Positions 2,484 through 43,234 are shown, counted from the first letter of the stretch. The stretch: 64,000 nt of DNA from an uncultured Methanosarcinales archaeon (GCA_964455675.1 CAYVYK010000001.1:1-64000), one strand, 5' to 3'. The notes: generated by a model from the sequence alone, not told the origin. Numbers and translations are program-made.

Positions 2484-2988
2484 GTCGGATAGCTGGGCAG
2501 GATTTTTTCCCCATAGAAAATCCCAGGTGTGGTATGGTGATTTTATTATTGCGCTCACTATTTTTGTCGCTGCCGTCATGATTTATTGGAGTTACCAGAA
2601 TAATTATGTTCCAGAAACAAAAAGCATCCAGTCTCTTTCGCTCGAAGCTGTCAATTTTGGCATGATGCTGAATAGTGAGGGAATTCCAGTGCACTGGACC
2701 TCGGTTAATGTCACAAGGGTTGGTATATCAAATGCTAACAACCGCATCAATGAGTCAAAGCTTCGCGAGTTTGCGATGATGAATCCTGAGACAGTGAGGA
2801 GGATTTCCAATCTTGAGTACAAGTACTTTGTGTACTTCCATCACACGAATGGATCATTCCTGCCAATAAACGCAACTCTCGACGCCGTTGGAGTCAATCC
2901 ACAGAATGCGACAAGGCTTGTCGAGACAAAGAGGCTCATGATCCGGGATAACGAGTTTGTGAATATGATAATCCAGGTGTGGGAATGA
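2467..2988 (+). CDS. Pilin-like/minor pilin protein
   Basis: RKSQVWYGDF followed by a hydrophobic helix; N-glycosylation sequons. The exact start is uncertain. Confidence 0.65.
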   Translation: MRSVGKSDSWAGFFPHRKSQVWYGDFIIALTIFVAAVMIYWSYQNNYVPETKSIQSLSLEAVNFGMMLNSEGIPVHWTSVNVTRVGISNANNRINESKLREFAMMNPETVRRISNLEYKYFVYFHHTNGSFLPINATLDAVGVNPQNATRLVETKRLMIRDNEFVNMIIQVWE

Positions 2989-7405: not shown

Positions 7406-7479
7406 GCGTTTTAAATAGCGATATCTGGGGTTTTAGCAGGATCGCAAAATATATAAAGCGCTAAGTCTGCCGCTCACGT

Positions 7480-8628: not shown

Positions 8629-10268
8629 ACATGGCAGGTAAGCAGCACCCGGGGCATCACGCGCCCGGAGAGCATGAGAAACATAGTTCTAGGAAGCGTG
8701 CTGTTCATCACGTAGTGCATCACCATAGAGCACATAAGCATGTCATGAAGCACGCTAAGCATAAGAAGAGTGATGCGCCGACTGAGCGTAAAATTGATTC
8801 TTACGACATTAAGTATGGTAAGCTTCCGGTCACAATCACGATCGTCCAGAAGCATGGTGAGTTTGTACCAAGTTATATTGTGAATATTTCAACCATTAGC
8901 CAGCATACGGAGATCATTCTGGAGAAGATTCGTCACGAGTTGATTGAGCAGGTAAACATTGGTATGCTCGATATTACGAAGACAAGGCATGATAACGAGC
9001 TAGAGAAACGCATGCAGGAAGCGATCGCGATGCTCGTAAGGAAGCATTTTCCTGAAGTGGATGAGGAGGGCATCGAGTTCTTGACATCATACCTAATCCA
9101 GCGCAGCCTAGGTCTTGGCAGGATTGAGTTACTTATGGAAGATGCGATGCTTGAGGAGATTGCAGTGAATAATGCTCAGGAGCCGGTTTGGGTCTACCAT
9201 CGGAAGCATGGATGGCTGAAGACGAATATTTTCCTCGCAAATGAGGATCAGGTGAGGCATTATGCATCCATGATTGGAAGAAAGGTTGGTCGTCAGATTA
9301 ATGTGCTCGAGCCGTTGATGGACGCGCACCTTGGAACGGGTGATCGTATCAACGCGACGCTCTCTCCTGTTTCGGTGAAAGGTAATACAATAACGATGAG
9401 GAAGTTCGCGGCAAAGCCCTGGACTATCACAGACTTCCTGAATTCTAACACTCTAACCACCAGAGCCGCGGCGATGATCTGGCTTGGTGTTCAGTACGAG
9501 ATGAGTATGATTATTGCTGGTGGTACTGCGAGTGGTAAGACAAGTATGTTGAACACGGTTTCGAATTTTTTCCCTCCAAATCAGCGGATCATAAGTATTG
9601 AGGACACTCGTGAGATTCAGCTCCCAAGTTTCCTCCACTGGCTCCCGATGAACACTCGCCTTCCAAATCCTGAGGGAAAAGGCGCGATCACCATGCTTGA
9701 CTTGCTGGTGAACTCCTTGCGCCAGCGTCCGGATAGGATTATTGTTGGTGAGATCAGAAGGAAGGCGGAGGCAGAGGTTCTGTTTGAGGCGATTCACACG
9801 GGCCACTCGGTATACGCTACCGTGCACGCAAATAACGCAAAGGAAGTGCTGACGCGCCTGACAAGTCCCCCGATCGAGATTCCAAAGAGTATGATCCCTG
9901 CAGTTTCCATGGTCATTGTGCAGTTTAGGAACCGTCGCACGGGAAATCGTAGGACATTCCAGGTTGCAGAGGTTTTGGACACGGGTGATATGAACGTTCT
10001 CATGCAGTATGATCCAAAGAAGGATCATCTTCTGGAAGTGGGCCATTCGCATGCGCTCATGGAGAATCTGGAGATGTACACCGGGTATTCAAGGAAAGAA
10101 ATTGAGGCTTCAATCCAAGAGAAGATCCATGTGCTTGAGTATTTGCAGAAGAAGGGCATAAACACGGTCGACGGTGTTGGAACGGTTATTGCTGAGTATT
10201 ACACGAATAAGGAATATCTGATGAAGATGATCCGTGAGAACAAGACCATTGAGCCTAAGTCCGGGTGA
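8625..10268 (+). CDS. Type IV pilus assembly ATPase (TadA/FlaI/VirB11 family) with His-rich N-terminus
   Basis: Walker A GGTASGKT, SIEDTRE, LRQRPDRIIVGEIR and TGH...TVHA His box. Confidence 0.93.
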   Translation: MNMAGKQHPGHHAPGEHEKHSSRKRAVHHVVHHHRAHKHVMKHAKHKKSDAPTERKIDSYDIKYGKLPVTITIVQKHGEFVPSYIVNISTISQHTEIILEKIRHELIEQVNIGMLDITKTRHDNELEKRMQEAIAMLVRKHFPEVDEEGIEFLTSYLIQRSLGLGRIELLMEDAMLEEIAVNNAQEPVWVYHRKHGWLKTNIFLANEDQVRHYASMIGRKVGRQINVLEPLMDAHLGTGDRINATLSPVSVKGNTITMRKFAAKPWTITDFLNSNTLTTRAAAMIWLGVQYEMSMIIAGGTASGKTSMLNTVSNFFPPNQRIISIEDTREIQLPSFLHWLPMNTRLPNPEGKGAITMLDLLVNSLRQRPDRIIVGEIRRKAEAEVLFEAIHTGHSVYATVHANNAKEVLTRLTSPPIEIPKSMIPAVSMVIVQFRNRRTGNRRTFQVAEVLDTGDMNVLMQYDPKKDHLLEVGHSHALMENLEMYTGYSRKEIEASIQEKIHVLEYLQKKGINTVDGVGTVIAEYYTNKEYLMKMIRENKTIEPKSG

Positions 10269-10274
10269 TGGTCA

Positions 10275-11087
10275 GTGCGCGGAGCCCTAGTTTGGTATGT
10301 GAAGCAACGGATGCCTGGTCTAGGTCTTTCTATGAAGCGCGCGGGGATGGATGAACCTGTTGATGAGTTTATCGTGCGGTGCGCAAAAGCTGGCCTCTAC
10401 ATGGCAGGTCTTGTTTCTGTTCTTGTATTCCTTTTGACCTCTGATAGCGGGGGATTTTGGTGGGCAATCATTGCTTTTCCGATTGCTGCTCCGCTCATGT
10501 TTGTGTACTTACTAAAGTCTCCCATTGCGCGCGTGGCAAAGAAGGAAAAGGAGATTAATCGTGAGATCCTATTCGCCGGCCGCTTTATGGTGATCGAACT
10601 GCAAAGCGGTGTGCCGCTCTATGATGCTCTCAAGAATGCAGCGACGCAGTACAAGGCTCTCGCCCCCTACATTCGTGAGATTATCACAAAAGTTGATCTT
10701 GGAACTTCGATGGATGATGCACTGAATGAGACTGTTGAGATCATTCCTTCTGAGAGTTTTCGAAAGATTCTGTGGCAGATCCTAAATTCCCTTCACACTG
10801 GTGCAGACATCGCAAATTCCTTACTTTCCGTGCTCGAGCAGATCACGAGGTCCCAGATGATCGAGATTGGTAAGTACGGACGCAAGTTGAATCCCATGGC
10901 GATGTTTTACATGATGGTTGCAGTGATTGTCCCCACGCTTGGGATCACGATGCTCGTCGTGCTTGCCACGATGACTGGTTTTTCCTTGAAGCTTCCTATT
11001 CTTCTCATGATCGCAGGACTTGTGGCGTGCGTTCAGATCATGTTTCTGATTATGATTAAGAATTCGCGCCCGGCGGTTGAATTATGA
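10275..11087 (+). CDS. Type II secretion system F / TadB-TadC family membrane protein
   Basis: Cytoplasmic T2SSF-like domain between TM helices; follows the ATPase. Confidence 0.85.
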   Translation: MRGALVWYVKQRMPGLGLSMKRAGMDEPVDEFIVRCAKAGLYMAGLVSVLVFLLTSDSGGFWWAIIAFPIAAPLMFVYLLKSPIARVAKKEKEINREILFAGRFMVIELQSGVPLYDALKNAATQYKALAPYIREIITKVDLGTSMDDALNETVEIIPSESFRKILWQILNSLHTGADIANSLLSVLEQITRSQMIEIGKYGRKLNPMAMFYMMVAVIVPTLGITMLVVLATMTGFSLKLPILLMIAGLVACVQIMFLIMIKNSRPAVEL

Positions 11088-12286
11088 AGGATAGTAAAGA
11101 GATGCATGAATTAAAGAAGCATGTTGTGCATAAGGTTCCCCTAAGGAAGCGCTGGGATAATTGGGTTAATGGAATGAAGGAGAGGTACGCCAAGAAGACT
11201 CCACCGGTGAAGGTTGTCGAGCCGCCGGTGGAATGGGATCGCCTCCAGAATGTTCAGATGTTCCGAAAGGAGCTTCAGAAAAGAATTAAGGAAGAGAAGA
11301 AGCTTGAGCGCAAGAAGCACACCCTGAAGTTCTATCTGCCAAAGGCAGGAATCTTCATGGAGTCTGACGCATTCTTCCGTATCCTGTTCATAATTACGAC
11401 AGCCCTCAATATTGTTCTGACGATCTCGTTCATTTGGTATTTCATGACATACAGAGGTTTTGGTATCCTGTATATCCTCCTCATGCTGTTCCTTCTCTGG
11501 ACGGTGGGTTTTGTTATTTCTTTTTTCATTGTGTGGGCAGGGGCATTCTTCTACATTGACGTGATGATGTTTCGTCGTAGAGTTGAGATTGAGAAGGTAT
11601 TGCCAGACTTTCTTCTGCTCACCGCGTCAAACATTAAGGCAGGAATGACGATCGACCAGGCTTTGTGGTATGCAGTGCGTCCAAGATTTGGTGTTCTTGC
11701 GCACGAGATTGAGATTGTGGCAAAGGAGACGATGACAGGCGAGGACTTAAAGAAGGCTTTGCATAAGTTTGCTCGTAAGTATGATTCTCCGGTGCTTTCA
11801 AGAACTATTAGCTTGATCACTGAGGGTATCGACGCGGGTGGTAAGATGGGTGACTTGCTCACGAAAATCGCGACAAACCTTCAGGAAAGTGACCTTGTGA
11901 GGAAAGAGATGGCCGCGAATGTTACGACATACATCATATTCATCACGTTCGCAACGATAATTGCTGCTCCCTTCTTGTTTGCCCTTTCGACCCAGATGAT
12001 TGACGTCGTTACTGGGCTTACATCCTCAATTGATCTCACGCAGGCAACCGGCCTCTCAGCTCCGGTAAAAGTGGGCACGGGAGGCATTGAGATCGGAGAC
12101 TTCCGGGTGTTTGTATTTGTCACGATGGCTCTAGGCTCCTTTATTTCCGCAATGATTATCTCAGTCATCAAGAATGGAACGGTAAAGCAGGGTCTTGGGT
12201 ATATTCCTGCATTCATTGCAGTGTCATTTATGGTGTATATCGTTGCGAATTTTCTGCTTGGTAGCGTCTTTAGCGGATTTTTCTGA
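11084..12286 (+). CDS. Type II secretion system F / TadC family membrane protein
   Basis: LPDFLLLTASNIKAGMTIDQAL and GIDAGG motifs; several TM helices. Confidence 0.88.
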   Translation: MKDSKEMHELKKHVVHKVPLRKRWDNWVNGMKERYAKKTPPVKVVEPPVEWDRLQNVQMFRKELQKRIKEEKKLERKKHTLKFYLPKAGIFMESDAFFRILFIITTALNIVLTISFIWYFMTYRGFGILYILLMLFLLWTVGFVISFFIVWAGAFFYIDVMMFRRRVEIEKVLPDFLLLTASNIKAGMTIDQALWYAVRPRFGVLAHEIEIVAKETMTGEDLKKALHKFARKYDSPVLSRTISLITEGIDAGGKMGDLLTKIATNLQESDLVRKEMAANVTTYIIFITFATIIAAPFLFALSTQMIDVVTGLTSSIDLTQATGLSAPVKVGTGGIEIGDFRVFVFVTMALGSFISAMIISVIKNGTVKQGLGYIPAFIAVSFMVYIVANFLLGSVFSGFF

Positions 12287-13397: not shown

Positions 13398-14423
13398 ATG
13401 CCAAGGAAGAAATCTGACGAGGAAAAACCTGATTTGTACAGGATCTTGCAGGTTCAGCCTTCGGCGGATCCTGAAGTAATTAAGGCAGCATCGCGTGCGC
13501 TAGTCCTCAAGTATCATCCAGATCATGGTGGTAATGGCGAGCATTTCAAAGAGATTAATCTGGCGCGCAAGGTCCTCGAGGATGAAAAGGAGCGCACAGA
13601 GTATGATGCGCAATTGAGGAAGTCCTGTGCGAATATGATTGGTCCCTATCAGCTTACAAGGAAGATTTCAGAGGGCGGTTTTGGCAGGGTCTATGAGGGG
13701 GTTCATACTCTTCTCGGCGAAAAAGTGTGTATTAAGCAGAACCTGCGGGTATCAGCGGAAGACACTGAGATGTTCGTCAAGGAGGCAAAGGCGATTTGGG
13801 AGCTTAGGCATCATGCGCTGCCTGCCGTGCGTGATATGATTGAGCTTCCAGACGGTAGCATGACGCTCGTGATGAGTTATATTCCTGGGCCGACGCTCGA
13901 ACAGGTCGTTAAAAAGTATGAGGCAAAGAATGATCATATTGATCCTGAGTCTGTATGCTGGATAGCCGAGCGTGTTCTTGACGCTCTTCGCTACATGCAT
14001 TGGCATGGTGTTGTACACGGTGATGTGAAGCCTGCAAATATTATCGTTCAGCCGGAAACCCATACGTGTGCTCTTGTTGATTTCGGTCTCTGTACAATTC
14101 GTCCGACATCACGTTCGCATGCAGAGGGCTACACCCCCCTGTTCGCAAGTCCCGAAAGTCTTGGCGATGGCCCTCTGCTTCCAGAATCTGATTTGTATAG
14201 TCTGGGTTTGACGATGATTTATGCTCTTGGAGGAGATGTGAAGAGAAAACGTATTCCGTCGTCAATTCCTGCAGGTATTCGCGACTACGTGAATGATCTC
14301 GTCATTTACGATGTCGCGGAGCGCCCGCACTGGGACAATATTGACCTTGTACAGAAACTTCGCGAGGTTCGCCTAAAGGAATTCGGTAGGTCTCATTCCG
14401 GTTTAGCGGAACTGCGATTGTAA
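13398..14423 (+). CDS. J-domain (DnaJ) - Ser/Thr protein kinase fusion
   Basis: DLYRILQV...YHPD...YD J-domain; kinase motifs GGFGRVY, VCIK, HGDVKPAN, DFG, SPE and DLYSLG. Confidence 0.92.
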   Translation: MPRKKSDEEKPDLYRILQVQPSADPEVIKAASRALVLKYHPDHGGNGEHFKEINLARKVLEDEKERTEYDAQLRKSCANMIGPYQLTRKISEGGFGRVYEGVHTLLGEKVCIKQNLRVSAEDTEMFVKEAKAIWELRHHALPAVRDMIELPDGSMTLVMSYIPGPTLEQVVKKYEAKNDHIDPESVCWIAERVLDALRYMHWHGVVHGDVKPANIIVQPETHTCALVDFGLCTIRPTSRSHAEGYTPLFASPESLGDGPLLPESDLYSLGLTMIYALGGDVKRKRIPSSIPAGIRDYVNDLVIYDVAERPHWDNIDLVQKLREVRLKEFGRSHSGLAELRL

Positions 14424-25682: not shown

Positions 25683-26663
25683 TTACACGAGCCAAATGAG
25701 CGATGCGAAAAAAAGTTCCATGGCGATCATTGCGTATACAACCTGGCGCTCGGAAAATGTTCCGGTTTGTGTCATAAGATGAGGGATTGAGTAAATCTTT
25801 GAGTGTTTAGACTTGAGTTTTCCATTCGGAAGCGCGTGGCCGACAGTGGTTTTCTGGAACTTTCCGCGAAGTTTAAGGATGAATTCCACAAAGAAAGGAA
25901 TGGATACGATAAGACACGCTTTCTCCATATTTCCAAGGACGGCGATGCATACAAGCACCGCCCCAAGCAGGTAGGTAAGGGAGTCTCCAGGCAGGATGCG
26001 TGCAGGTACCCGATTGTAGATGAGGAATGCGGCAAGGGCAGCAAATGTGATGAATGCTATGGTCGCTGCAGTACCGGATCCAATATGGAGAGCATACAAG
26101 CCAAGCATTCCTGTGTATACCATGCCCATCCCAGCTTCCATGCCGTTGAACCCCCCAAGAAGATTGACCATGTTGCTTGCCCCGACTACACCAATGGGGA
26201 CGAGGACCAGAGCGTACAATATCCCAAAATCAACGTTTCCAAATAAGGGAACATTCATCATCGACTCTCCTGCTTTGATTGCCATGAGAGGGATTGCTGC
26301 AGGGAGTGTGAGGAGTGGTTTTTGCCATTGTTTGAGGCCCACAGAATATTTTTGGTTGTTATGGATGAGAAGGTCATCCATGAATCCGATGAAAGTGATA
26401 ATCATGATTGAGCATGCTGCAGCAAGCAGAGAAAGATAAGAGTCGCCGTTTTTTGTGATGAATACCCCGATGAATACAAGAGTGAGGATTCCCGCGAGAA
26501 TTCCAGCCGCAACGGGGAGTCCCCCAGAGATGGGCACAAGGGTTCTCGGGTATTTTCCAAGATCTTGGACGACCGCATTGATTCTTGTGAGATACCGAAT
26601 GAAGTATGGTGTGAGAAATACGGTAAGAAGAAACGAGATGATGATCCCGATGAGGATGGTCAT
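25683..26663 (-). CDS. Polyprenyl-phosphate GlcNAc-1-phosphate transferase (AglH/GPT/MraY family)
   Basis: P..GG, GFMDD, NMVN..GFNG.E.G and ILPGD; multiple TM helices. The start is inferred at MTILIG. Confidence 0.85.
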   Translation of the reverse strand: MTILIGIIISFLLTVFLTPYFIRYLTRINAVVQDLGKYPRTLVPISGGLPVAAGILAGILTLVFIGVFITKNGDSYLSLLAAACSIMIITFIGFMDDLLIHNNQKYSVGLKQWQKPLLTLPAAIPLMAIKAGESMMNVPLFGNVDFGILYALVLVPIGVVGASNMVNLLGGFNGMEAGMGMVYTGMLGLYALHIGSGTAATIAFITFAALAAFLIYNRVPARILPGDSLTYLLGAVLVCIAVLGNMEKACLIVSIPFFVEFILKLRGKFQKTTVGHALPNGKLKSKHSKIYSIPHLMTQTGTFSERQVVYAMIAMELFFASLIWLV

Positions 26664-26719
26664 ACATGCTGGTGAGAAGGCACAACTTTTAAAAGTTCTT
26701 ACCGCATGTAAGGAAGATA

Positions 26720-27508
26720 ATGGCAAATGGGATGACTGAATCACTGCGGGAGGTATGGCAGTACCGTGAGTACATCCGTTATGAGACGATCGCTCGCTTG
26801 AAGGTTCGTCATAAGCGTACGGTGCTTGGGTATGTGTGGTGGGTTCTTGATCCTCTGCTTTTTATGGGTATTTATGTCCTCATTGTGCAGATTATTTTCA
26901 AGCGTGGAGGCCCTGATTATCCATTATTTGTTCTGCTTGCCTTGCTCCCATGGAGATGGTTTTCTTCCTCACTTATTGATGCTGCTGATGCAATCCGCGG
27001 AAAGGCAGGATTGGTAAAACAGGTGTATTTTCCAAAAATCACGCTTGTGCTTGCTGCAATGCTCTCTAATAGCGTGAACTTTGCCATAGGGCTGTTGATC
27101 CTTATTCCATTCCTCATGTTCTACCATGTTCGATTGACACAATTCATGGTGTTCTTCCTGCTGCTCGTGCTCGTGCAGATACTCCTAACATTAGGACTTG
27201 CGTTGATGATCGCACACTTTAATGTTTTTTTTAGGGATATCGGCAATCTTCTGCGATATGGTCTCCAGGTTTGGTTCTATTTGTCACCAGGTATATACGC
27301 AGCATCATTAGTTCCGCCCACGATTCTGCCATATTATTACCTGAATCCGTTTGTAACCATATTTGAAGGGTATAGAAATGCTATGATGTATGCTTCTCCC
27401 CCTAATCTGATTGCCTTAGGGATTATCATGCTCTGCTCAATAGTGTTGATACTCATAGGCCTATCGATCATAATAAAGAAACAGGGAGAGTATGCAAAAG
27501 TCCTGTAA
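26720..27508 (+). CDS. ABC-2 polysaccharide export permease (Wzm/TagG-like)
   Basis: LGYVWWVLDPL, VKQVYFP, FRD, FYLSPGIY and NP motifs. Confidence 0.9.
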   Translation: MANGMTESLREVWQYREYIRYETIARLKVRHKRTVLGYVWWVLDPLLFMGIYVLIVQIIFKRGGPDYPLFVLLALLPWRWFSSSLIDAADAIRGKAGLVKQVYFPKITLVLAAMLSNSVNFAIGLLILIPFLMFYHVRLTQFMVFFLLLVLVQILLTLGLALMIAHFNVFFRDIGNLLRYGLQVWFYLSPGIYAASLVPPTILPYYYLNPFVTIFEGYRNAMMYASPPNLIALGIIMLCSIVLILIGLSIIIKKQGEYAKVL

Positions 27509-28211
27509 ACCTGGTGTTCGAATCACGAATCTAGGCATCCGTTTCAATCTGGACAAGAAGGTGGATACGTCGATTAAGAAGATCATTCTCAAACCTTGGA
27601 GCAAGCGGCAAGAAAGAATATATTGGGGACTAAGGGGAGTGAATCTCGAGTTTAAGACAGGCGAAATTGTGGGCATCATAGGACCAAATGGCTCCGGTAA
27701 AAGCACATTGCTTCGTGCGATCGCTGGCATATATACTCCTGATGAAGGTGTAATCTCGTGCACTGGAAAGGTTGCGCTTCTCGCTATCGGCGCGGGTTTC
27801 CAACCGGAGTTGACAGGTATCGAAAATATTTGTCTCGTGGGGTCAATGTATGGGTTTTCACAGGAAGCGATGAATGAGTTGCTGCCAAGAATTGTTGATT
27901 TCGCTGATATTGGTGAATTTATCTACCAACCTACTCGAACGTACTCATCAGGAATGGTATCCCGTCTTGGTTTTGCGATCGTTGTACAGCTTGATCCAGA
28001 TATTCTTCTCATAGACGAAATATTGGCTGTCGGTGATCAGGCATTTCGTGAAAAATGTATCCGTACGATAAAACAGAAGTATCTGAGGGGGGATAAGATA
28101 GTTCTGTTTGTCAGTCATGATAGGAAGGTCATATCTGAGTTCTGTAATAGAATCGTGACTGCAAAGAAAACGCAAACACATGGATTTATCTTCACCGATG
28201 AGGTTGGATAA
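27492..28211 (+). CDS. ABC polysaccharide export ATP-binding protein (Wzt/TagH-like)
   Basis: GPNGSGKS, YSSGM..RLGF and IDEILAVGD..F. Confidence 0.92.
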   Translation: MQKSCKPGVRITNLGIRFNLDKKVDTSIKKIILKPWSKRQERIYWGLRGVNLEFKTGEIVGIIGPNGSGKSTLLRAIAGIYTPDEGVISCTGKVALLAIGAGFQPELTGIENICLVGSMYGFSQEAMNELLPRIVDFADIGEFIYQPTRTYSSGMVSRLGFAIVVQLDPDILLIDEILAVGDQAFREKCIRTIKQKYLRGDKIVLFVSHDRKVISEFCNRIVTAKKTQTHGFIFTDEVG

Positions 28212-28249: not shown

Positions 28250-30304
28250 TCATCTGACAGTGTTGTTGCTGGATGCATCAAGTTCAAATGCTTGAGAAAG
28301 AGTGAGTAACTGCTGTTCATAGTAACCGATATATGACTTCTTTACGTTATTCCGTTTCAAATGGTATTCTTTTGTATCATGCATCAGCGAAATGATCTGG
28401 TTTTGGAACTCTATATCACTGGTTGCCAGAACGACTCCGGGCAGTAGAGCAGGGTCAAGACCCTCCATAGAGTGAGGGGTGAGGACAACAGGTATTCCAT
28501 GCGCCAGCGATTCGACAACTTTTATTTTTTGTCCCGTGCCCACATAGAGTGGGCTTATGCTTATGGCAGTATCATCGTAGACGGAAAAGAGGTCTTCAAC
28601 CTCACCAATTTGATTGCATCCTTCAGTGATAGGTATATGGTCACAAATCTTTCCGACGATAGTCAGTTGAACGGCAGGAATTGCCTTTCGAACGGCAGGG
28701 AATATTTTTTTTATAAAGTAGCTTATGCCATGAATGTTTGCTGGATTCGCCGACCCGATAAAGAGTAGGTTTGGTTTTCCAGGAGAGGTGTGGAGAATAG
28801 GTTTCTGCAAATGACCAACGGTAAAAACTTCACGAGAAGTTATGGTTTGATAATATTTTTTTTCATTATCTTGAATAGCAATGATTCTATCAGCCCGATT
28901 CAACCCCTTTGATTCTTCTTCTTGGGTAGTTGAAAAGAAAGTTGAGGGTACGCCATACTTCTCATACCGTTTGCTTCGATCGGTGAAGACATCATGTGTA
29001 TCAATAATTTTGATCGTTCTCTCATCGAATTGCAGCAAGACCCTTGATGTATAAACGTATTCAACAAGAGCAATATCATACTGGTTGTAGGTTAGAAGCC
29101 TGTTGCAGACTACGTCTACGTCATGGTTATACCATTCATCGATCTGGCTTTCTTCGGATATCTTTCCTGTGAAGATACGGCCGCTTCGGATGGAGCGCCA
29201 CATTGGCCTCACATGTGTATAGAGGGATGGCATGTGTTTTCTTGTATACCTACCAGCTTTTCGGACTAGGTTGTCCACGGCACGTACAGGACTGCTAGCA
29301 GCGTACTTTAGAATACTTCTATCCGTACTGTTCTGGACACAGACGTAATGATCCCATGTAGTATTCATGGCTGATTCATCTATTCCACGCTTGATATGGT
29401 CAGATCCTCGTTCCTGATAATCCAATAAGAAATGGATGGTGTTTCCTTGTTGTTTTAGGATGGACAGCATGTTAAATATTCTTGCTCGGTTGCCGGCATT
29501 TTGCGGATGTGAGGGAATTGGGGAGATGACAAGAATTTTTTTTACTCGTCGCGGTTTCTCGTTCTGGACGAGAAATCCGTTCGTAGGATTGGAGAATCTT
29601 CTGTCAACATCATCAATGTTAGGGATAAGGTTGTATGTATCGTCAGAGTTCACTTTGGAATTTGCGGGATCCAGAAGTTCATCGACTTTCTTTATTTGGG
29701 AATGTGTATATTTAGGGATTCCTAAGAAACGGATAATGCTATCTAGAATCTGGTGCTTTTGTGCTCTTGAGACATTTAGTCCAAACAAGTCTTCATATAC
29801 GATCTCGATGTGATTAACGTTGGAATTTTTGAGTATTTGGCGGTATACTTGCACTTCCTTAAGGTAGGTGTCAATTTCATCTTGGAGGTTTATGAGGTTT
29901 ATCGGAGAGTAGGAATGATGAATAATTTTTGTGCGGTCCCTTCCCCATTCCTTTGATTGACGACTGATTTCTTGTGAAACCGCTCTCTGTGTTGCATTTC
30001 TTCTCCAAAGATAGATCACCTTGTCGTATTCCTTCGTAAGCAAATTTTCATTGAGCCCCATGGGCAGCTGGTAAGCAAGATGTTTGATAAGGTTGTAGTC
30101 CTTGTGGATTTCATCCACTTTTAAATGGAGTGATTCTGCATCAACTACTCCGGCTACATATTTCTTCCTTCCATCGGGTGGATGGGGATGGAATGGTTCA
30201 CCAAGTGGCTTGATGAGTGGGTGAACACCAAGGATCAGCTTAAGGACAGAGCTACCTGTCCGAGTAAAGGCAAAGATGAGTACTCTTTGTTTCATGGGTA
30301 TCAT
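28250..30304 (-). CDS. Sulfotransferase (Stf0-like) - GT4-like glycosyltransferase fusion
   Basis: N-terminal FTRTGSS, LWRRN...RAVS and VYEDL; C-terminal G..P.N..G and GTGQKIKVVESLAHGIPVV. Confidence 0.8.
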   Translation of the reverse strand: MIPMKQRVLIFAFTRTGSSVLKLILGVHPLIKPLGEPFHPHPPDGRKKYVAGVVDAESLHLKVDEIHKDYNLIKHLAYQLPMGLNENLLTKEYDKVIYLWRRNATQRAVSQEISRQSKEWGRDRTKIIHHSYSPINLINLQDEIDTYLKEVQVYRQILKNSNVNHIEIVYEDLFGLNVSRAQKHQILDSIIRFLGIPKYTHSQIKKVDELLDPANSKVNSDDTYNLIPNIDDVDRRFSNPTNGFLVQNEKPRRVKKILVISPIPSHPQNAGNRARIFNMLSILKQQGNTIHFLLDYQERGSDHIKRGIDESAMNTTWDHYVCVQNSTDRSILKYAASSPVRAVDNLVRKAGRYTRKHMPSLYTHVRPMWRSIRSGRIFTGKISEESQIDEWYNHDVDVVCNRLLTYNQYDIALVEYVYTSRVLLQFDERTIKIIDTHDVFTDRSKRYEKYGVPSTFFSTTQEEESKGLNRADRIIAIQDNEKKYYQTITSREVFTVGHLQKPILHTSPGKPNLLFIGSANPANIHGISYFIKKIFPAVRKAIPAVQLTIVGKICDHIPITEGCNQIGEVEDLFSVYDDTAISISPLYVGTGQKIKVVESLAHGIPVVLTPHSMEGLDPALLPGVVLATSDIEFQNQIISLMHDTKEYHLKRNNVKKSYIGYYEQQLLTLSQAFELDASSNNTVR

Positions 30305-31068
30305 CGTGCAACAAAAGAGGGATTTCTTAGGATACTCTTGTTGTATTCAAGCTCTTTGTTTGTGTCATAAACATAGATGTTCTTGCCTGCTTCTTTTATA
30401 ATAATATGGCCTGTTGCAGTATCCCATTCCATTGTTGGTGCAAGTCTTGGGTAGACATCTGCAACTCCCTCAGCGAGAAGACAAAACTTGTACGAACTTC
30501 CGGCAAATGATAAATTGATGATCTTATGTGATGCATGAAGTGATTCTACAAATGCTTTTGTTTCGTCGGTAAAGTGTGATTTACTTGCAACTACGTTGCA
30601 CGTGCCAGGGTGGGAGGCTGGTTTACTTAGCTTACTTGTTCTGTTGGACTCATGTTTAAAGCAGCCCTTCCCCGCAATAGCATAGTAAGTCTTTTGATAT
30701 GCGGGCAAATGCATAACTCCAAACACTGGCGTTGTTCCGTGAATTAAAGCAAGGTTTATTGCATAGTCCTTCTCCCCTCGAATGAATTCTTTTGTGCCAT
30801 CGAGTGGATCAAGCAACCAAACCCATTCAAATGGTTGTCTTTTCTTATAAGGGGGGGAAGTTTCCTCTTCAGATATCACGGGGATGTCTGGACACACTTT
30901 TTGCAGAAATTCAAGAATCTTATGGCAAGAGAGAGTGTCAGCAGTAGTAACCGGAGACTTGTCTGACTTGTATCTCACGTCATAGTTCCTGCTTTGAATG
31001 TTCAGGATGAGTACTCCAATCTTCTCTGTAGTTTGAACAAATTGATTGATATCAAGCATATCGAGCAT
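30301..31068 (-). CDS. cysQ: 3'(2'),5'-bisphosphate nucleotidase CysQ
   Basis: KSDKSPVT.AD, ISEE, DPLDGTKEF, GSS.KFC.LAEG.AD.YPR and WDTA. Confidence 0.93.
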   Translation of the reverse strand: MLDMLDINQFVQTTEKIGVLILNIQSRNYDVRYKSDKSPVTTADTLSCHKILEFLQKVCPDIPVISEEETSPPYKKRQPFEWVWLLDPLDGTKEFIRGEKDYAINLALIHGTTPVFGVMHLPAYQKTYYAIAGKGCFKHESNRTSKLSKPASHPGTCNVVASKSHFTDETKAFVESLHASHKIINLSFAGSSYKFCLLAEGVADVYPRLAPTMEWDTATGHIIIKEAGKNIYVYDTNKELEYNKSILRNPSFVAR

Positions 31069-31086: not shown

Positions 31087-31968
31087 TTAATGGAGATGCA
31101 GAATCTTGAGTAGTTGAGCGACACAGGTTTCTATGTCGTGTTGTTCAGTATCAATGATAAACTCAGTTCGGGGTTCATCAAATGGATCATCAATTCCGGT
31201 AAACCCTTTGATCTCACCAGCCCTCGCTTTCTTGAACATTCCTTTAACATCTCTTCGCTCACATTCTTCAAGACTGCACTTAACGTATACTAATTTCATG
31301 TAGGGAATGATGCTTTGTATCATAGACCTCATTTCGTTGGTTGGGGAAACAAAACTGGCGATAACAGCATTACCGTTCTCGTTGAACAGGCGGCAGATAT
31401 GGGCAACTCTTCTAAGGTTTTCCTTCCGATCATCTTCAGAGAAACCTAAATCCTCGTTGATCTTTCCGCGTACGTCATCACCATCAAGGTGAGCAGTTTT
31501 AATGCCCCGGTTTTCCATTTCTTCTTTGAGGCGTTTTGCGAGAGTTGTCTTACCTGAGCATGGCAGCCCCGTTAACCACACTGTGGATTTGAGAGAGTTG
31601 ATGTAGTCGGTAACTTCAGGAGGAATATTGTCCTCTTTTCCGAGCCGAACATTTGTCCCGGATATTCTTCCGATATGCTCTGGGGGATCGATCTGGTTCA
31701 CTGCGTATCCTACGTTTCTCCCTATGTTGATGCTCTCAATGTCTGGGATCTTGATGGATAAAACCTTGTCTCCGTGCACTCTCCGAATCATCTCTTTTCT
31801 CTGTTCGTAGGTATAGGGATTCTTGTCAGAAAGCTCGGTGTCTCGTATACCCACGCAGACATTCTTTCCCTCCTTGAGAGCTTGGTCGACGAGATACTTG
31901 TGTCCAGAGTGATATGGTTGCCAGCGCCCGATGAATAGAGCATATCGTTTGTGTTGGTTGTATTTCAT
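31087..31968 (-). CDS. cysC: Adenylyl-sulfate kinase with N-terminal HxGH nucleotidyltransferase domain
   Basis: C-terminal WLTGLPCSGKTT, LDGD.VR and RDVKG...FTGIDDP; N-terminal FIGRWQPYHSGH...NPY...ISGTNVR. Confidence 0.9.
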   Translation of the reverse strand: MKYNQHKRYALFIGRWQPYHSGHKYLVDQALKEGKNVCVGIRDTELSDKNPYTYEQRKEMIRRVHGDKVLSIKIPDIESINIGRNVGYAVNQIDPPEHIGRISGTNVRLGKEDNIPPEVTDYINSLKSTVWLTGLPCSGKTTLAKRLKEEMENRGIKTAHLDGDDVRGKINEDLGFSEDDRKENLRRVAHICRLFNENGNAVIASFVSPTNEMRSMIQSIIPYMKLVYVKCSLEECERRDVKGMFKKARAGEIKGFTGIDDPFDEPRTEFIIDTEQHDIETCVAQLLKILHLH

Positions 31969-32142
31969 ATATGCAGTCTGATGAACGAGGCTTATATTCT
32001 TTTCTTTTTCTGGAACTCACTGCTTGGTGACAGTGTAGCATATTGAATCGTGAAGGAGATAACAAGGTATGGGGGTTGAAGGAACACATAGCATGATTCA
32101 TATAAAAGAATAAAAAAGAGGATAATGTATCTCTGAAATTTG

Positions 32143-33258
32143 ATGACTGCACCAAGAACCTGTCTAATCCATGACTTTCTGCTCAATTATGGGGGCGCCG
32201 AGAAATGCGCGGAGGCAATCGCGGAGATTTTCCCAAGAGCTCCGATCCACACGATTGCCTGGAATCCGAAGAACGTTCCTTTCGCTTCGAATAGGATTAT
32301 TCCCACCATTGCAGACGGTTTTCCATGCGTGAGAAAGAGATATCATATCTACATCCCGCTATACCCATTCATAGCATACACGATCCACCCGAAGGGTGAT
32401 ATCATCATCTCATCCTTCTTCGCTTTCTGCAAGGGATTCAAGAAGCGCAAAGGCCAACTCCACATCTGTTATTGTCACTGTCCTCCTCGTTTCCTGTATG
32501 ATTTTCCGGACTCGCTCTATGCCCGCCAGCCTTGGCTCTTAAGGGTGCTGCTCCGCCCGATTATTCTCGCGCTCAGATGGTGGGATATTAGATCTGCGAA
32601 GAATGTTGACTACTTCATCACTACCAGCAAGTCCGTCCAGGCAAGGATCAAGCAGTGGTACAAGCGAGACGCGATTGTCATTCATCCCTTTGTTGATACC
32701 CAAAAATTTAGTCTTAGAAACAGAAAGCGGTCGTACTACCTTTTCGTCGGAAGGCTTGCCCTTCCCTACAAGAAAGCAGATGTCGCCGTCCAGGCATTCA
32801 ATAAGCTTGGTTTACCTTTAGTTGTTGTCGGCGACGGTCGTGATAGAAAATTTCTGGAAAGCATGGCAAAGCCCAACATCAGGTTTATCGGCGCAATCCA
32901 CGACGAAAAAAAGCTCGCAGATTACTACCAAGGTGCGAAAGCAGTTATATTCCCATCTTATGATGATTTTGGTATGGTTCCCATCGAGGCCCAGGCCTGC
33001 GGCACTCCAGTCATTGCGTATGTGAAAGGTGGCGCGTTGGAAACGGTTATTGAAGGTAAAACGGGCCATTTCTTCACGCCTCAAACCTCCGATGCGCTCG
33101 CCAAGGCCGTGAAAGAATTCGAGAAGATGAGGTTCACTCCCAAGGATATCAGAAAGAACGCGCTGAGGTTTGATAAGAAGGTTTTCCAAAAGAAGATCAA
33201 AAGATTTATTGATCAGAAATGGTCAGAAAAGCATTTAAACGCTCCCACACATCTCTAA
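32143..33258 (+). CDS. Glycosyltransferase family 4
   Basis: HD.L..YGGAE, YCH.P.R and DDFGMVPIEAQACGTPVIA. Confidence 0.9.
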   Translation: MTAPRTCLIHDFLLNYGGAEKCAEAIAEIFPRAPIHTIAWNPKNVPFASNRIIPTIADGFPCVRKRYHIYIPLYPFIAYTIHPKGDIIISSFFAFCKGFKKRKGQLHICYCHCPPRFLYDFPDSLYARQPWLLRVLLRPIILALRWWDIRSAKNVDYFITTSKSVQARIKQWYKRDAIVIHPFVDTQKFSLRNRKRSYYLFVGRLALPYKKADVAVQAFNKLGLPLVVVGDGRDRKFLESMAKPNIRFIGAIHDEKKLADYYQGAKAVIFPSYDDFGMVPIEAQACGTPVIAYVKGGALETVIEGKTGHFFTPQTSDALAKAVKEFEKMRFTPKDIRKNALRFDKKVFQKKIKRFIDQKWSEKHLNAPTHL

Positions 33259-33261
33259 ATC

Positions 33262-35217
33262 ATGGGGGATCGTTCTGCGATTATTGGATTGGCTATTGTC
33301 GTAATACTGGGTATTGGCTTGCAATTCCTCATTCCGTACCTCAATCAGCAGTATTTGGATTATCAAATTATCAAATACCGTCTTGCGGACGGAACCCCCT
33401 ACCTTTCCGGCCCTGATGATTATTATTTCCTCCGTCATGCGTCACAATGGAATCGCGAGATAGAGGACAAAAGCTGGGCGTACAGTCTCTACGTTGATGA
33501 CGAGTTGAGGAATTATCCTCACAAAGCTCGGTCACGAGTGGGATTGTATCCTTTGATGCTTGTCTGGTGGAATTCTCTTCTTCCGTTTCGCTCAATGGAT
33601 CAGGCAGCGTACTATTTCCCTCTAATTGCGTACATTCTATCCATCCTCTTCATGTATGGTATCGCGAGAAAATTTGCCAGCATGTGGCCTTCTCTCGTAG
33701 GCGCAGCGTTGTTTGCAAGCGTACCTGCGGTTCTTGAATCCTTCCATCTTGGCATGGGCGATACCGACGCGATCATCATGCTGCTGTACATTTCTTCAAT
33801 GTACCTCTGGCTTTGGGTAGTATCATGTAAAGAGAGAGCACAGCAAATCGCTGCTGGAATAGCGCTGATTCTTATGCTCATCATCTTCTGGCAAGTCTGG
33901 AGCAACTTCTACTTCGTTCTAGCGCTCATTGTAATAGTCGTAGTAACTGCAATAATCATTGCCTCGCCTACTAGTACCGCAAGGTTTCAATTAAAATTGT
34001 TCTATCGAATTCTTATTGTGAGTGGGATCGTCATAATAGGCGCAGGTACCCTATGGAAATTCCTCCCCCAGCGCGTCCTCGTGATGCTCCATCTTGCAAA
34101 ACCTCAAGCGTTCGTCGCTGCCTACACAACGGTGACTGAGCTGCAGTCAATAAGCCTCACAGAGTTCTGGAAGATGATGGATGGCCCTCTGCTTATCTTT
34201 GCTCTTGGTGGAGCGATTGTCGTAATCTGGCGTTTCTGGAAGCAAAGAAGCATTTCGTACGCCACAATGGTTGTCTGGATCCTTGGTTTTTCCGCTTTTC
34301 CCTTCCTTGCTGCTCGTTTGGCAAATTTCGCCGTAATTCCCATCATCCTCTCTGCCATCCTCGGAATTGATGTCACGGCTGATTGGATGGTACGGCGCAC
34401 GAAGCAGTCAGTGGCAAGTATTGTTCCCTTAGCAATTGGCTTCATGATCATCTTCTTCTCGGTGCCTTCAATTGCGGATCATGCCCTGCGCATTCCACTG
34501 ATGGATGATGGCATTTACGAGTCCGCCATGACCATCCGTAACCTCTCGGAAAGCGTAGTGATCGCCTGCCCCTGGGATGAGGGATACTACTATGAGTACT
34601 TCGCGAACCGTCCTGTGCTGCTAGACGGCGGTGATTTCGCTAGTCATAGGCAGTACTGGTATTCTCGCGCTCTCATGTCCAAGGACACAAACGAAAGCTT
34701 GGGAATCTTGAGGATGTTGGTCTCTGGGAAAGATAGGGGGAGAGCGATGGGCAATCCTTACCTGAACGCTAGCTGTCCTGAGGATATTGTGCTTGTTGCT
34801 TCCGATCGGGACTTGCGTCATGTGCATATCTACAGGTATTTTGCATCCTTTAGTGGCACCCCCATGGATAACATCACAGATGAAGTCATGATTAGCCGTC
34901 AGATGCAATGCTCCCCAGGGCCGATCTATAGGTGCGGAATGAATTCTATTGATATCCCCAGGATGACGGTTGACTGGTCTGGTACCGTGTTCCGCAGACT
35001 TCTTGTGGTGAATGGTTCACAGAAATATCATGTGCATTTTCCCAATCCTTCAGAGAATGCGACAATGGTAGTGAGGCAGCTCGAACCCTTCAGCGGTGTG
35101 TTCATTATTCAGGATGAGTTCGATGACAGCCTGCTCTTCAAAGCCTTATTCTTGAGGGAAGCTTTTAGCTCGGGATACCTTACCGAAGAAAGGATTGTAG
35201 TTAAAGTAGAAAAATAA
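33262..35217 (+). CDS. STT3/AglB-like oligosaccharyltransferase (degenerate motif)
   Basis: D.YY..R, DTD and TVTEL (TIXE-like); PWDEGY in place of WWDYG; many TM helices. Confidence 0.7.
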   Translation: MGDRSAIIGLAIVVILGIGLQFLIPYLNQQYLDYQIIKYRLADGTPYLSGPDDYYFLRHASQWNREIEDKSWAYSLYVDDELRNYPHKARSRVGLYPLMLVWWNSLLPFRSMDQAAYYFPLIAYILSILFMYGIARKFASMWPSLVGAALFASVPAVLESFHLGMGDTDAIIMLLYISSMYLWLWVVSCKERAQQIAAGIALILMLIIFWQVWSNFYFVLALIVIVVVTAIIIASPTSTARFQLKLFYRILIVSGIVIIGAGTLWKFLPQRVLVMLHLAKPQAFVAAYTTVTELQSISLTEFWKMMDGPLLIFALGGAIVVIWRFWKQRSISYATMVVWILGFSAFPFLAARLANFAVIPIILSAILGIDVTADWMVRRTKQSVASIVPLAIGFMIIFFSVPSIADHALRIPLMDDGIYESAMTIRNLSESVVIACPWDEGYYYEYFANRPVLLDGGDFASHRQYWYSRALMSKDTNESLGILRMLVSGKDRGRAMGNPYLNASCPEDIVLVASDRDLRHVHIYRYFASFSGTPMDNITDEVMISRQMQCSPGPIYRCGMNSIDIPRMTVDWSGTVFRRLLVVNGSQKYHVHFPNPSENATMVVRQLEPFSGVFIIQDEFDDSLLFKALFLREAFSSGYLTEERIVVKVEK

Positions 35218-41319: not shown

Positions 41320-41458
41320 TTTTCATTAGTTTCTCATGGACTATACGCTCCGAACGCTTTCCAAGAAAATTTTGATAGTCCCGCAGTCCCTTGCGGAAGC
41401 GTGTCTGCACTTCAGACAGTACAAAAACCTTTTAAACATCCCTCGATTCGATTCTACA

Positions 41459-43234
41459 ATGAGCTTGGAATCATCATACCGGTCCCATCACAACGGAGAA
41501 CTCACGGCAAAGGACAAGGACAAGGTTGTGCGGCTTGCTGGCTGGGTTCACGCGCGAAGGGATCACGGTGGCATTATCTTTATTGACTTGCGTGACCGCT
41601 ACGGGCTTACGCAGGTTGTGTTTGATCCTGACACTTCAAAATCGGATCACAAGCTGGCCGAATCGCTCCGCCGCGAGGATGTCATCGCGATAGAAGGCAG
41701 TGTGTTCCTCCGAAAGGAGGGCATGAAGAATCAGAACCTTCCGACGGGTGAGATCGAGGTATTCGCGCATAGGCTCAAGGTTCTGGCGAGGTCCGAGACT
41801 CCTCCGTTTGAGATCGATGATAGAGTCGTAGCGAGTGATGACATGCGGCTCAAATATCGTTTCCTTGATTTGCGTAGGCCCATCATGCAGAAGAATCTCT
41901 TGTTCCGCGACCGCATGACGATTGCGGCAAGGAAGTATGTCCATGAGCATGGGTTTGTCGAGATTGAGACTCCGATGCTCGTAAAACCGACTCCTGAGGG
42001 AGCGAGGGATTATATTGTTCCGTCGAGAGTACATCCTGGAAAATTCTACGCTCTGCCTCAGAGCCCCCAGCTCTACAAGCAGATCTGTATGATTAGTGGC
42101 GTTGACCGGTATTTCCAGATGGCACGCTGTTTGCGTGACGAGGATTTGCGCGCTGACCGCCAGCCTGAGCATACGCAGATGGATATCGAGATGAGTTTTG
42201 TCGATTCCAAGGATATTCGCGCGTTTGTGGAAGGCCTGTTTAAATTCTTGACGAAGGAAGCGATCGGCGTGGAGATCAAGGAAGAATTCCCCATGCTTTC
42301 GTATGAAGAAGCGATGGAAAAGTACGGCACGGACAAGCCCGACTTGCGCTATGACTTACACTTGCAGACGGTAACAGGCATCGTGAAGAACTCGGACTTT
42401 GGTATTTTCAAGAAAGTTATCGATGATGGCGGCGTCGTGAAAGTGCTAGTCTGCCACAAGGACTTGTCGAGAACGGAGCTTGAGAGCCTTGGCGAATTTT
42501 CTAAGGAGTCAGGCTCAAGGGGTATGGCCTGGATGAAGGTAACTGACAAGGGTCTTGAGGGAAGCATTGCGAAGTTCTTCCCGGAGAAAGTTCAGCATGA
42601 GTTAATCAGTCACACGAAGGCGAAGACTGGTTATGTGTTGATGTTTATCGCCGACGGCCCAAAAAAAACAAACTTCTATCTTGACAAGCTTCGCCAGGAG
42701 CTCGCGCGTCGTCTTGACTTGATTCCAAAGGATGTGTACAAGTTCTGCTGGGTCGTGAACTTCCCGTTATTCTCATTTAACGAGGAAACGGATGCATGGG
42801 AAGCCGAGCATCACATGTTCTCTCATCCAACGATGGAAACGATCGATTTCCTCGAGAAGGATCCTGGAAAAGTTATTGGTGATTTGTACGATATCGTGCT
42901 GAACGGCACTGAGCTCGGATCAGGCAGTATCCGTATCAATAATCCCGAGCTCCAAGAGCGTGTCATGAAGGTTATTGGCCTCTCGAAGGAGGCAGCGCAT
43001 AAGAAATTTGGCTTCCTGCTTGATGCATACAAGTATGGCGGTCCTCCCCACGGTGGTATGGGCCTTGGCCTGGATAGATTCCTCGCGCTCATGCTTGGTA
43101 CAAATGATATTCGTGAGATCATTGCGTTCCCGAAGAACAAGGCGGCCGAGTGCCCGATGGATGGATCGCCAAGTGAAGCGGATCCTTCGCAGCTCAAGGA
43201 ATTGCATATTTCTGTGAATGTAGTGAAGAAGTGA
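41459..43234 (+). CDS. aspS: Aspartate--tRNA ligase, bacterial type (probably non-discriminating)
   Basis: RRDHGG..FIDLRD, TPEGARDY, ALPQSPQ, RDEDLRADRQPE, GAD-like insertion and PPHGG.GLGLDR; about 590 aa. Confidence 0.95.
   Translation: MSLESSYRSHHNGELTAKDKDKVVRLAGWVHARRDHGGIIFIDLRDRYGLTQVVFDPDTSKSDHKLAESLRREDVIAIEGSVFLRKEGMKNQNLPTGEIEVFAHRLKVLARSETPPFEIDDRVVASDDMRLKYRFLDLRRPIMQKNLLFRDRMTIAARKYVHEHGFVEIETPMLVKPTPEGARDYIVPSRVHPGKFYALPQSPQLYKQICMISGVDRYFQMARCLRDEDLRADRQPEHTQMDIEMSFVDSKDIRAFVEGLFKFLTKEAIGVEIKEEFPMLSYEEAMEKYGTDKPDLRYDLHLQTVTGIVKNSDFGIFKKVIDDGGVVKVLVCHKDLSRTELESLGEFSKESGSRGMAWMKVTDKGLEGSIAKFFPEKVQHELISHTKAKTGYVLMFIADGPKKTNFYLDKLRQELARRLDLIPKDVYKFCWVVNFPLFSFNEETDAWEAEHHMFSHPTMETIDFLEKDPGKVIGDLYDIVLNGTELGSGSIRINNPELQERVMKVIGLSKEAAHKKFGFLLDAYKYGGPPHGGMGLGLDRFLALMLGTNDIREIIAFPKNKAAECPMDGSPSEADPSQLKELHISVNVVKK

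Follow-up and report, generated by a model that had tools for sequence, protein, structure and literature searches.

A compact candidate PAPS synthase in a Methanosarcinales archaeon, with a small NMNAT-like domain as its putative ATP sulfurylase

A stretch of 64,000 nucleotides from an uncultured Methanosarcinales archaeon (GCA_964455675.1 CAYVYK010000001.1:1-64000; hereafter, the window, meaning the whole of this stretch) contains, on its minus strand, an open reading frame (ORF) with an ATG start that encodes a protein of 293 amino acids (aa) in which a small HxGH nucleotidyltransferase domain is joined to an adenylyl sulfate (APS) kinase, CysC (31087..31968). In the current view, sulfate is activated by either of two types of enzyme, Sat or CysDN. 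Here we argue, on the grounds of comparative genomics, that the small domain of this fusion is probably a third, NMNAT-derived kind of ATP sulfurylase, which would make the fusion a compact synthase of 3'-phosphoadenosine 5'-phosphosulfate (PAPS). As judged from the sequence, this suggests that the activated sulfate needed for sulfating surface sugars is produced by the small domain in place of the usual ATP sulfurylase.

The domain composition of the fusion is clear. The translation of the ORF contains FIGRWQPYHSGH, KNPYTYEQ, and RISGTNVR. The N-terminal domain, the candidate ATP sulfurylase (residues 1-126; 31591..31968, minus strand), matches PF01467 (CTP_transf_like) from residue 11 with 41.8 bits at a cut-off of 21, which places it in this superfamily. 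Its motifs are GRWQPYHSGH (residues 14-23), IRDT (41-44), NPY (50-52), PDI (75-77), GRNVGY (83-88), and ISGTNVR (102-108), so that both hallmarks of the HxGH superfamily, H20-S-G-H23 and I102-SGTNVR108, are present on a Rossmann-like fold, and both are kept throughout the family. The C-terminal APS kinase domain (residues 128-291; 31096..31587, minus strand) is recognized by PF01583 (APS_kinase; 179.7 bits, residues 128-268) in Pfam and, in NCBIfam, by the equivalog-domain model TIGR00455 (apsK; 189.5 bits at a cut-off of 138.7, residues 127-289). The hallmarks of APS kinases are the P-loop GxxGxGK(S/T) and the DGD, (F/V)xSP, and FTG motifs; the CysC motifs of the fusion are intact, namely the P-loop GLPCSGKTT, LDGDDVR, SFVSP, and KGFTG. 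A first-pass annotation, which was made from the DNA alone, had described an NMNAT/cytidylyltransferase-like domain fused to an intact CysC, and this description is confirmed by the above matches. In the AlphaFold2 model of the full-length protein (mean predicted local distance difference test score, pLDDT, 93.7; predicted template modeling score, pTM, 0.85), there is no linker between the two halves: helix 117-126 continues directly into the kinase strand 129-133.

With every motif in place and a score above the equivalog cut-off, the CysC domain requires a supply of APS. Neither Sat nor CysD was seen among the window ORFs scanned, in line with the first-pass annotation, which had found no sat or cysDN in the window and had proposed a search of the genome for them. 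That search, in the source genome (1.72 Mb in 25 contigs, 99.0% complete, 0.4% contaminated), returned neither: there were 0 matches to Sat (PF01747) and 0 matches to the PF01507 model, which covers CysD as well as PAPS reductases and detected its family in 14/14 control genomes. There was no match to AprA either, and no CysN above the cut-off in this genome, the single CysN-like match scoring 276 bits against a cut-off of 336, as archaeal EF-1alpha would be expected to do. The fusion is the only APS kinase above the cut-off in the genome. Thus, the source organism possesses an intact CysC, together with CysQ and a likely sulfotransferase, but no Sat, CysD, or AprA, no CysN above the cut-off, and hence no recognized source of APS.

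The small domain is tied to CysC far beyond this archaeon. An exhaustive, profile-free search with the domain alone yielded 1891 representatives at E <= 0.001, 399 of them at E <= 1e-10. Among the 150 best representatives, the domain precedes CysC in 21 and follows it in 51, so that 72 are fusions with CysC in either order; 55 are stand-alone domains, although some short ones may be gene fragments from short contigs, and the remaining 23 carry other extensions, mostly without a Pfam family. One of the latter, a 432-aa protein (P0263), combines the small domain with a C-terminal DHHA1 domain (E 7.4e-5, below the cut-off), a domain type of NrnA-like pAp phosphatases, and would be a further link to PAPS/PAP (3'-phosphoadenosine 5'-phosphate) metabolism. 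A locus scan with a closer alignment (A2), with one genome per species, gave 80 loci from Omnitrophota, Planctomycetota, Woesearchaeota/Nanoarchaeota, Saccharibacteria, and other groups of the candidate phyla radiation, as well as Saprospiraceae, Pyrinomonadaceae, Chlamydiia, and Proteobacteria. In 70 of the 80 the two domains reside in a single ORF, in the order N-CysC in 50 and CysC-N in 20; in four more loci, cysC is an adjacent or overlapping ORF. Two loci are cut by a contig end, two are without cysC, one is fragmented, and one (L088) is an ordinary NMNAT. The fusion has its closest relatives in records labelled Omnitrophota and Woesearchaeota, and public records name it only adenylyl-sulfate kinase. 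The domain is also present in cultured phages of Xylella, Xanthomonas, and Stenotrophomonas, inside genes annotated as 'kinase' or 'adenylylsulfate kinase'. In a quick maximum-likelihood tree that was built for the domain on few columns, the architectures interleave; given the branches with at least 95% support in the Shimodaira-Hasegawa-like approximate likelihood ratio test, the N-CysC state must have changed at least 3 times and the CysC-N state at least 8 times. The catalytic residues of the two halves show little or no variation among 59 full-length fusions, the invariant kinase residues being G134, G139, K140, D162, R167, P209, R239, D240, and G258.

The surroundings of the fusion in other genomes were surveyed with 134 flanking proteins from 35 loci. 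Sulfotransferases are encoded within two genes of the fusion in 6 of these loci, glycosyltransferases or sugar-nucleotide enzymes are found near it in many of them, and sulfatases and TauE are among the flanking genes of one locus (L053). A second, stand-alone cysC directly follows the fusion gene in three cases (L078:5201-7504, G356:C2:76956-78406, and G476:C9:42408-43876), in the first of which a CysQ-like gene precedes the fusion. In three loci of the candidate phyla radiation, NUDIX-domain proteins, two of them of about 600 aa, are encoded just upstream of the fusion (L057:5039-5560, L067:3368-5239, and L073:3634-5409).

As to what the small domain is, sequence and structure point in the same direction. 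The family, about 110-126 aa in span, was aligned as the window's domain plus 53 stand-alone members (alignment A1). In this alignment, R15, H20, H23, G83, R84, and G87 are invariant, and the consensus reads GRWQPFHxGH ... IRDT ... NPY ... PDI ... GRxVGY ... IS(A/G)TxIR. With the AlphaFold2 model of the N-terminal domain (pLDDT 95.6), Foldseek ranks archaeal NMNAT and NadM first (template modeling scores of 0.70-0.75), the earliest ATP sulfurylase (8a8g) appearing at rank 49. In the wide VIA-align comparison, the NMNAT of M. jannaschii (1f9a) has a Z of 12.8, with a root-mean-square deviation of 2.4 Å and 29% identity over 119 aligned residues, followed by PPAT (4nah, Z 11.8) and NadM (Z 11.7), and, among ATP sulfurylases, by the T. 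thermophilus enzyme (1v47, Z 9.1, 121 residues), 2gks (Z 7.3), and 1x6v (Z 5.7). The residues R11, H19, and R136, which are mutated in solved NMNAT entries according to the titles of these entries, correspond to R15, H23, and R108 of the small domain, all of them invariant or nearly so. The NMNAT, NadM, and PPAT models are the sole NCBIfam matches to the N-terminal domain, and all of them cover its first ~70-80 residues with scores far below the cut-offs; in particular, the archaeal NMNAT models TIGR01527 (37 bits against 181.2) and NF002243 (43.9 against 127) are matched at model positions ~2-82 only, so that the domain falls outside archaeal NMNAT proper. The family profile matches 1f9a with an E of 4.4e-17 and aligns in two pieces only, residues 4-76 and 110-154, skipping some 33 residues of NMNAT (~77-109), in place of which it has eight positions that include the GR motif. 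The skipped segment of the M. jannaschii enzyme, located between strand 4 and the SGT helix, is the one that we take to form the site for nicotinamide mononucleotide (NMN).

The relation to Sat is more distant. PF01747 is not among the Pfam matches of the small domain at E <= 0.01. A set of 14 Sat catalytic domains taken from genomes (alignment A3) shows FQTRNPxHRAH, VGRDHAG, and SGTxxR; in ATP sulfurylase, the QXRN stretch contacts phosphosulfate and the GRD loop binds substrate, according to PMC6607087. The small domain carries F-I-G-R-W-Q-P-Y-H-S-G-H and I-G-R-N-V-G-Y, which is the motif order of Sat, with the register off by one residue and with the GR loops left unpaired by the alignment tools. 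We considered GRxVGY as a homologue of the GRD loop of Sat and dropped this idea because hhalign pairs the HxxH stretch only, while the resemblance as such is retained. The proposal of the first-pass annotation that the small domain is a stripped-down Sat had to be abandoned for the same reason, along with the lack of a match to the Sat model and the fact that archaeal NMNAT is nearest in both sequence and fold. The alignment with Sat profiles being confined to HxxH, the domain is better viewed as an NMNAT-like core with the pocket for the second substrate replaced than as a trimmed Sat.

A replacement of canonical sulfurylases should also be visible in their distribution, and the first-pass annotation had suggested looking for an anticorrelation of the domain with sat in cysC-cysQ-sulfotransferase loci. 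In 201 genomes from the phylum of G007 (a record labelled Omnitrophota), 91 of which have CysC, both Sat and CysD are missing from 4/6 fusion carriers versus 8/85 CysC genomes that have no such domain (Fisher p 0.0024). In 201 genomes of the phylum to which the source organism belongs, each with a completeness of 94% or more, the respective numbers are 3/4 and 3/16 (p 0.06). With the two samples pooled, these become 7/10 carriers and 11/101 other genomes (p 8e-5), although all these p-values overstate the case because related genomes are not independent and the tests ignore phylogeny. The frequency of Sat/CysD is thus lower in carrier genomes, but 24/80 of those in the locus scan have a canonical enzyme.

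This last count, like the dependence among genomes, belongs to a series of observations that weigh against the small domain being a third ATP sulfurylase. Of the 80 carrier genomes, 7 have Sat and 19 have CysD, with both in two, which leaves 56 with neither (a count that includes the doubtful rows L087 and L088); many of the 80 are metagenome-assembled genomes of unstated completeness. As to the CysD assignments, 8 of the 19 lie above the TIGR02039 cut-off and 11 score 185-228 bits, and all five of the latter that were examined are true CysD-CysN pairs (NF003587, 302-344 bits at a cut-off of 195). The fusion and a canonical enzyme occur together in G007 and G010 (Omnitrophota) and in G476 (own phylum), and in G058 a divergent CysD-CysN pair lies beside the N-CysC fusion (L091:4896-8038, the same locus as L066). 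The first-pass annotation had named a canonical sat or cysDN that supplies APS as a reason to give up its proposal; there is none in the source genome, whereas this objection does apply to the 24 carriers, once with CysDN right beside the fusion. The G058 fusion reads GH where all other copies read GR, with His for the invariant Arg of the GRxVGY loop, which, as a single case, fits the decay of a redundant site. Furthermore, a full-length domain is found in 0/8 Omnitrophota and 0/3 own-phylum genomes that have CysC and lack Sat and CysD, so that the prediction that every such genome carries the domain failed in 8 + 3 exceptions. With the A1 profile, three of the eight Omnitrophota exceptions give partial, generic nucleotidyltransferase matches (positions ~3-88) and five give none; in the own-phylum exceptions, there is none in G404 and G358 and a partial match in G410. 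In another genome, G409, a copy of the domain at the start of a contig contains two stop codons. Either the assemblies of the orphan-CysC genomes are incomplete, or another source of APS exists there. The closeness to Sat is at the superfamily level only, hhalign of A1 against A3 yielding 57 columns around HxxH with 57% probability. Finally, the sulfate transporters SulP and TauE were not found in the source genome (other transporter families were not searched), nor was a family-I pyrophosphatase (other pyrophosphatase families were not searched).

With regard to transport, an APC permease gene directly follows the fusion in four Omnitrophota/Planctomycetia loci (L012:6577-8430, L015:6955-8808, L016:6959-8824, and L018:6934-8796). 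The proteins, of 617-621 aa, consist of AA_permease_2 and a C-terminal PTS EIIA-2 domain and are candidate sulfate importers; no relative of this gene was found in the source genome.

Among other explanations of the above data, one would have the small domain act as a non-catalytic or regulatory partner of the APS kinase that binds ATP, APS, or PAPS and tunes or stabilizes the kinase, with APS coming from elsewhere. We consider this unlikely, even though there is a precedent: the APS kinase of Entamoeba histolytica has a Sat-like domain that does not bind substrate and still modulates the kinase activity, according to a preprint (bioRxiv 10.64898/2026.04.02.716029). The retention of Sat or CysDN by 24 of the 80 carriers, the loss of the invariant Arg in G058 where CysDN adjoins the fusion, and the second cysC next to the fusion in L078, G356, and G476 also speak for such a role. 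However, the residues implicated in adenylyl transfer, R15, H20, H23, T105, and R108, vary little or not at all across clusters with an identity of only 35-50%, and degenerate domains usually lose such residues; moreover, stand-alone forms, which account for 55 of the 150 best representatives, are common, and no other known source of APS is encoded in the source genome. It appears quite improbable that the domain functions as an ordinary adenylyl- or cytidylyltransferase for NMN, flavin mononucleotide, phosphopantetheine, or a sugar or glycerol phosphate, with its fusion to CysC being incidental or serving another coupled pathway. The top sequence and fold matches are, indeed, NMNAT, NadM, and PPAT, cytidylyltransferases of about 130 aa do exist (2b7l, Z 7.2), the gene sits in a glycan-biosynthesis cluster, and NUDIX proteins are encoded upstream of the fusion in L057, L067, and L073; but the NMNAT and PPAT models score far below their cut-offs and only over the first ~70 residues, the NMN-binding segment is absent, and the linkage to CysC is kept across bacteria, archaea, and phages regardless of the neighbours. 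Besides, the source genome encodes a separate full-length archaeal NMNAT-like protein (C5:75313-75924, the same as L008:1477-2088; NF002243, 90 bits at a cut-off of 127, model positions 5-165 of 175) and has additional PF01467 genes.

Even less credence, in our judgment, is due to the possibility that APS is taken up from a host or partner or comes from an unrecognized enzyme, the domain being engaged in a reverse or side reaction (for example, APS + pyrophosphate -> ATP) or acting on another small anion such as selenate or molybdate. What makes it worth considering is that relatives of the source organism have genomes of about 1 Mb, typical of dependent lifestyles, that no sulfate importer was recognized in the source genome when SulP, TauE, and a relative of the APC permease were searched for, and that orphan-CysC genomes without the domain exist, which implies another APS source there unless the assemblies are incomplete. 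Nevertheless, we know of no APS transporter, and the co-occurrence pattern points specifically to a replacement of Sat/CysDN; the reverse reaction would belong to the same enzyme class, so that the family assignment would stand. The reading of the small domain as an ATP sulfurylase, and of the whole protein as the bifunctional PAPS synthase that the first-pass annotation had supposed, is thus favoured by the linkage in both fusion orders, the lack of Sat, CysD, and AprA in the source genome, and the lower frequency of Sat/CysD in carriers, and we regard it as more likely than not. Extended to the family as a whole, with somewhat less assurance although still on the favourable side, we suggest that these domains of about 110-126 aa are a third, independently evolved, NMNAT-derived class of ATP sulfurylase that works with APS kinase, as a fusion or a pair, in the activation of sulfate in many Omnitrophota, Planctomycetota, bacteria of the candidate phyla radiation, DPANN-type archaea, and phages. 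Where a genome has adenylyl-sulfate kinase as its only annotated enzyme of PAPS synthesis, such a class would supply the 'missing first step'.

The proposed mechanism can be envisaged as follows. The N-terminal domain would be an HxGH adenylyltransferase derived from NMNAT that has lost the NMN pocket and has, in its place, a small anion site lined with arginines, namely R42 of IRDT and R84 of GRxVGY. This domain would move AMP from ATP onto sulfate, yielding APS and pyrophosphate, and the attached CysC, the identity of which is established by its models, would phosphorylate the 3'-OH of APS to give PAPS, with the tight fusion pulling the unfavourable first step forward. The PAPS would then go to the downstream sulfotransferase-glycosyltransferase for sulfation of a glycan produced by the AglB/glycosyltransferase/ABC-exporter cluster, while CysQ would clear the by-product PAP.

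A protein of this kind has parallels in several known systems. In CoA synthase, an HxGH adenylyltransferase, PPAT, acts first, and dephospho-CoA kinase then adds a phosphate to the 3'-OH of the adenosine. The fusion would share this logic, that is, the transfer of AMP from ATP to an oxyanion and the subsequent 3'-phosphorylation by a P-loop kinase in one chain; the difference is that its acceptor would be sulfate and not phosphopantetheine, and that the model score identifies its kinase as a true CysC. With the PAPS synthases composed of Sat and APS kinase, such as human PAPSS1 (1x6v) and the Sat-CysC of Aquifex aeolicus (2gks), it shares the combination of an HxxH-type adenylyltransferase and an APS kinase in one chain, and both domain orders occur in nature in either kind of protein. 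The cores of Sat align to the whole small domain at the fold level, and HxxH, a GR-containing loop that resembles the one of Sat, and SGTxxR follow in the same order. However, Sat is a protein of ~380-400 aa, whereas the putative sulfurylase module of the fusion has ~126 aa and is without the PUA-like domain, and the QTRNPxHRAH and VGRDHAG of Sat contrast with GRWQPxHxGH and GRxVGY in the small domain. Archaeal NMNAT and NadM (MJ0541, 1f9a; the M. thermautotrophicus enzyme, 1ej2; TIGR01527) have GRxQPxHxGH, NP(F/Y), and SGTxxR in common with the small domain, which, unlike them, has IRDT for IGSAQ and IGRNVGY for the NSIW region and belongs to a family tied to CysC and not to NAD genes. The APS kinase of E. 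histolytica is similar in having a fused sulfurylase-superfamily domain of a non-obvious role; according to the preprint (bioRxiv 10.64898/2026.04.02.716029), that domain derives from Sat and no longer binds substrate, and ATP sulfurylase is present as a separate enzyme, whereas the domain of the fusion is NMNAT-like, keeps its catalytic residues, and has no other sulfurylase beside it in the source genome.

Full-text literature searches, with subscription journals outside their coverage, returned no description of the fusion, and a term search of PMC6286981 found none either. It seems rather likely that the fusion is a PAPS synthase and that its sulfurylase module stems from a branch of the HxGH superfamily other than that of Sat. 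If so, hundreds of protein clusters labelled only 'adenylyl-sulfate kinase' would be complete PAPS synthases, and pathway annotation would under-call the sulfation capacity of small-genome bacteria, archaea, and phages. The enzyme would also be the smallest known one to activate sulfate, usable for PAPS regeneration in biocatalysis, and a clear case of a fold of the NAD pathway re-tooled for a bare oxyanion.

The genes next to the fusion in the window are in keeping with sulfation of glycans. The gene for CysQ, a 3'(2'),5'-bisphosphate nucleotidase that removes PAP (30301..31068, minus strand), begins 18 bp after the fusion gene, downstream on the same strand, and scores 242.5 bits with TIGR01331, above the equivalog cut-off of 228.8 (PF00459, E 7e-45). 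It is overlapped by 4 bp by a gene for a 684-aa protein (28250..30304, minus strand) with a sulfotransferase-like region (~1-255) and a C-terminal GT1 glycosyltransferase domain (~508-658; PF13692, E 2.5e-16). The sulfotransferase-like region stays below the gathering scores of both PF00685 (18.3 bits versus 22, E 0.0016) and PF13469 (18.9 bits versus 27, E 0.0019), and a sequence search of solved structures with it gave nothing meaningful; the ESM Atlas language-model neighbours of the protein are Sulfotransfer_3 clusters (feature score 0.95-0.96), and it is the only protein with a PF13469-like signal in the source genome. Of the gene order described by the first-pass annotation, in which the fusion lies upstream of cysQ and a sulfotransferase, the cysQ part is upheld, and the sulfotransferase, on the same strand, has family matches below threshold. 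As read from sequence, this protein is likely to be the consumer of PAPS, its sulfotransferase role being at the level of a lead.

Divergently from the fusion, a GT4 glycosyltransferase (32140-33258, plus strand; PF00534, E 7.4e-30) and an AglB/STT3 oligosaccharyltransferase (33262-35217, plus strand; PF02516, E 9.6e-8; PF21436, E 6.2e-6) give a setting of protein glycosylation, and a GT family 4 (GPT-type) sugar-phosphate transferase (25683-26744, minus strand; PF00953, E 2.4e-29) together with an ABC-2 exporter pair (26720-27508 and 27492-28211, plus strand; PF01061, E 1.1e-6; PF00005, E 7.9e-21) gives one of glycan assembly and export.

Some further features of the source genome concern relatives of the small domain. 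The NMNAT-like gene on contig C5, which scores under the NMNAT cut-offs, has HLGG in place of HxGH and KASAVR in place of SGTxxR. A long ORF elsewhere has, as read by eye, a PF01467 domain followed by a P-loop, and a 449-aa open frame at C10:28995-29357 combines a cytidylyltransferase domain with a long C-terminal region that, also by eye, resembles a PEP-mutase/isocitrate-lyase-type domain, which would suggest phosphonate decoration of glycans.

The remaining genes of the window are archaeal housekeeping genes, including those for fibrillarin, Nop, RLI, deoxyhypusine synthase, class I LysRS, archaease, and RtcB. A 341-aa protein (13398-14423, plus strand) joins an N-terminal DnaJ domain to a Ser/Thr protein kinase domain, which is an uncommon combination in an archaeon. 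The GAD insertion domain is typical of bacterial-type AspRS, and the aspartyl-tRNA synthetase of the window (41336-43234, plus strand) contains it (PF02938, E 8e-19), so that this may be a transferred gene. The region 2979-12286 (plus strand) encodes a 1169-aa VWA-domain protein with a GH115-C-like domain and then an archaeal type IV pilus/secretion set that consists of a T2SSE ATPase and two T2SSF proteins.

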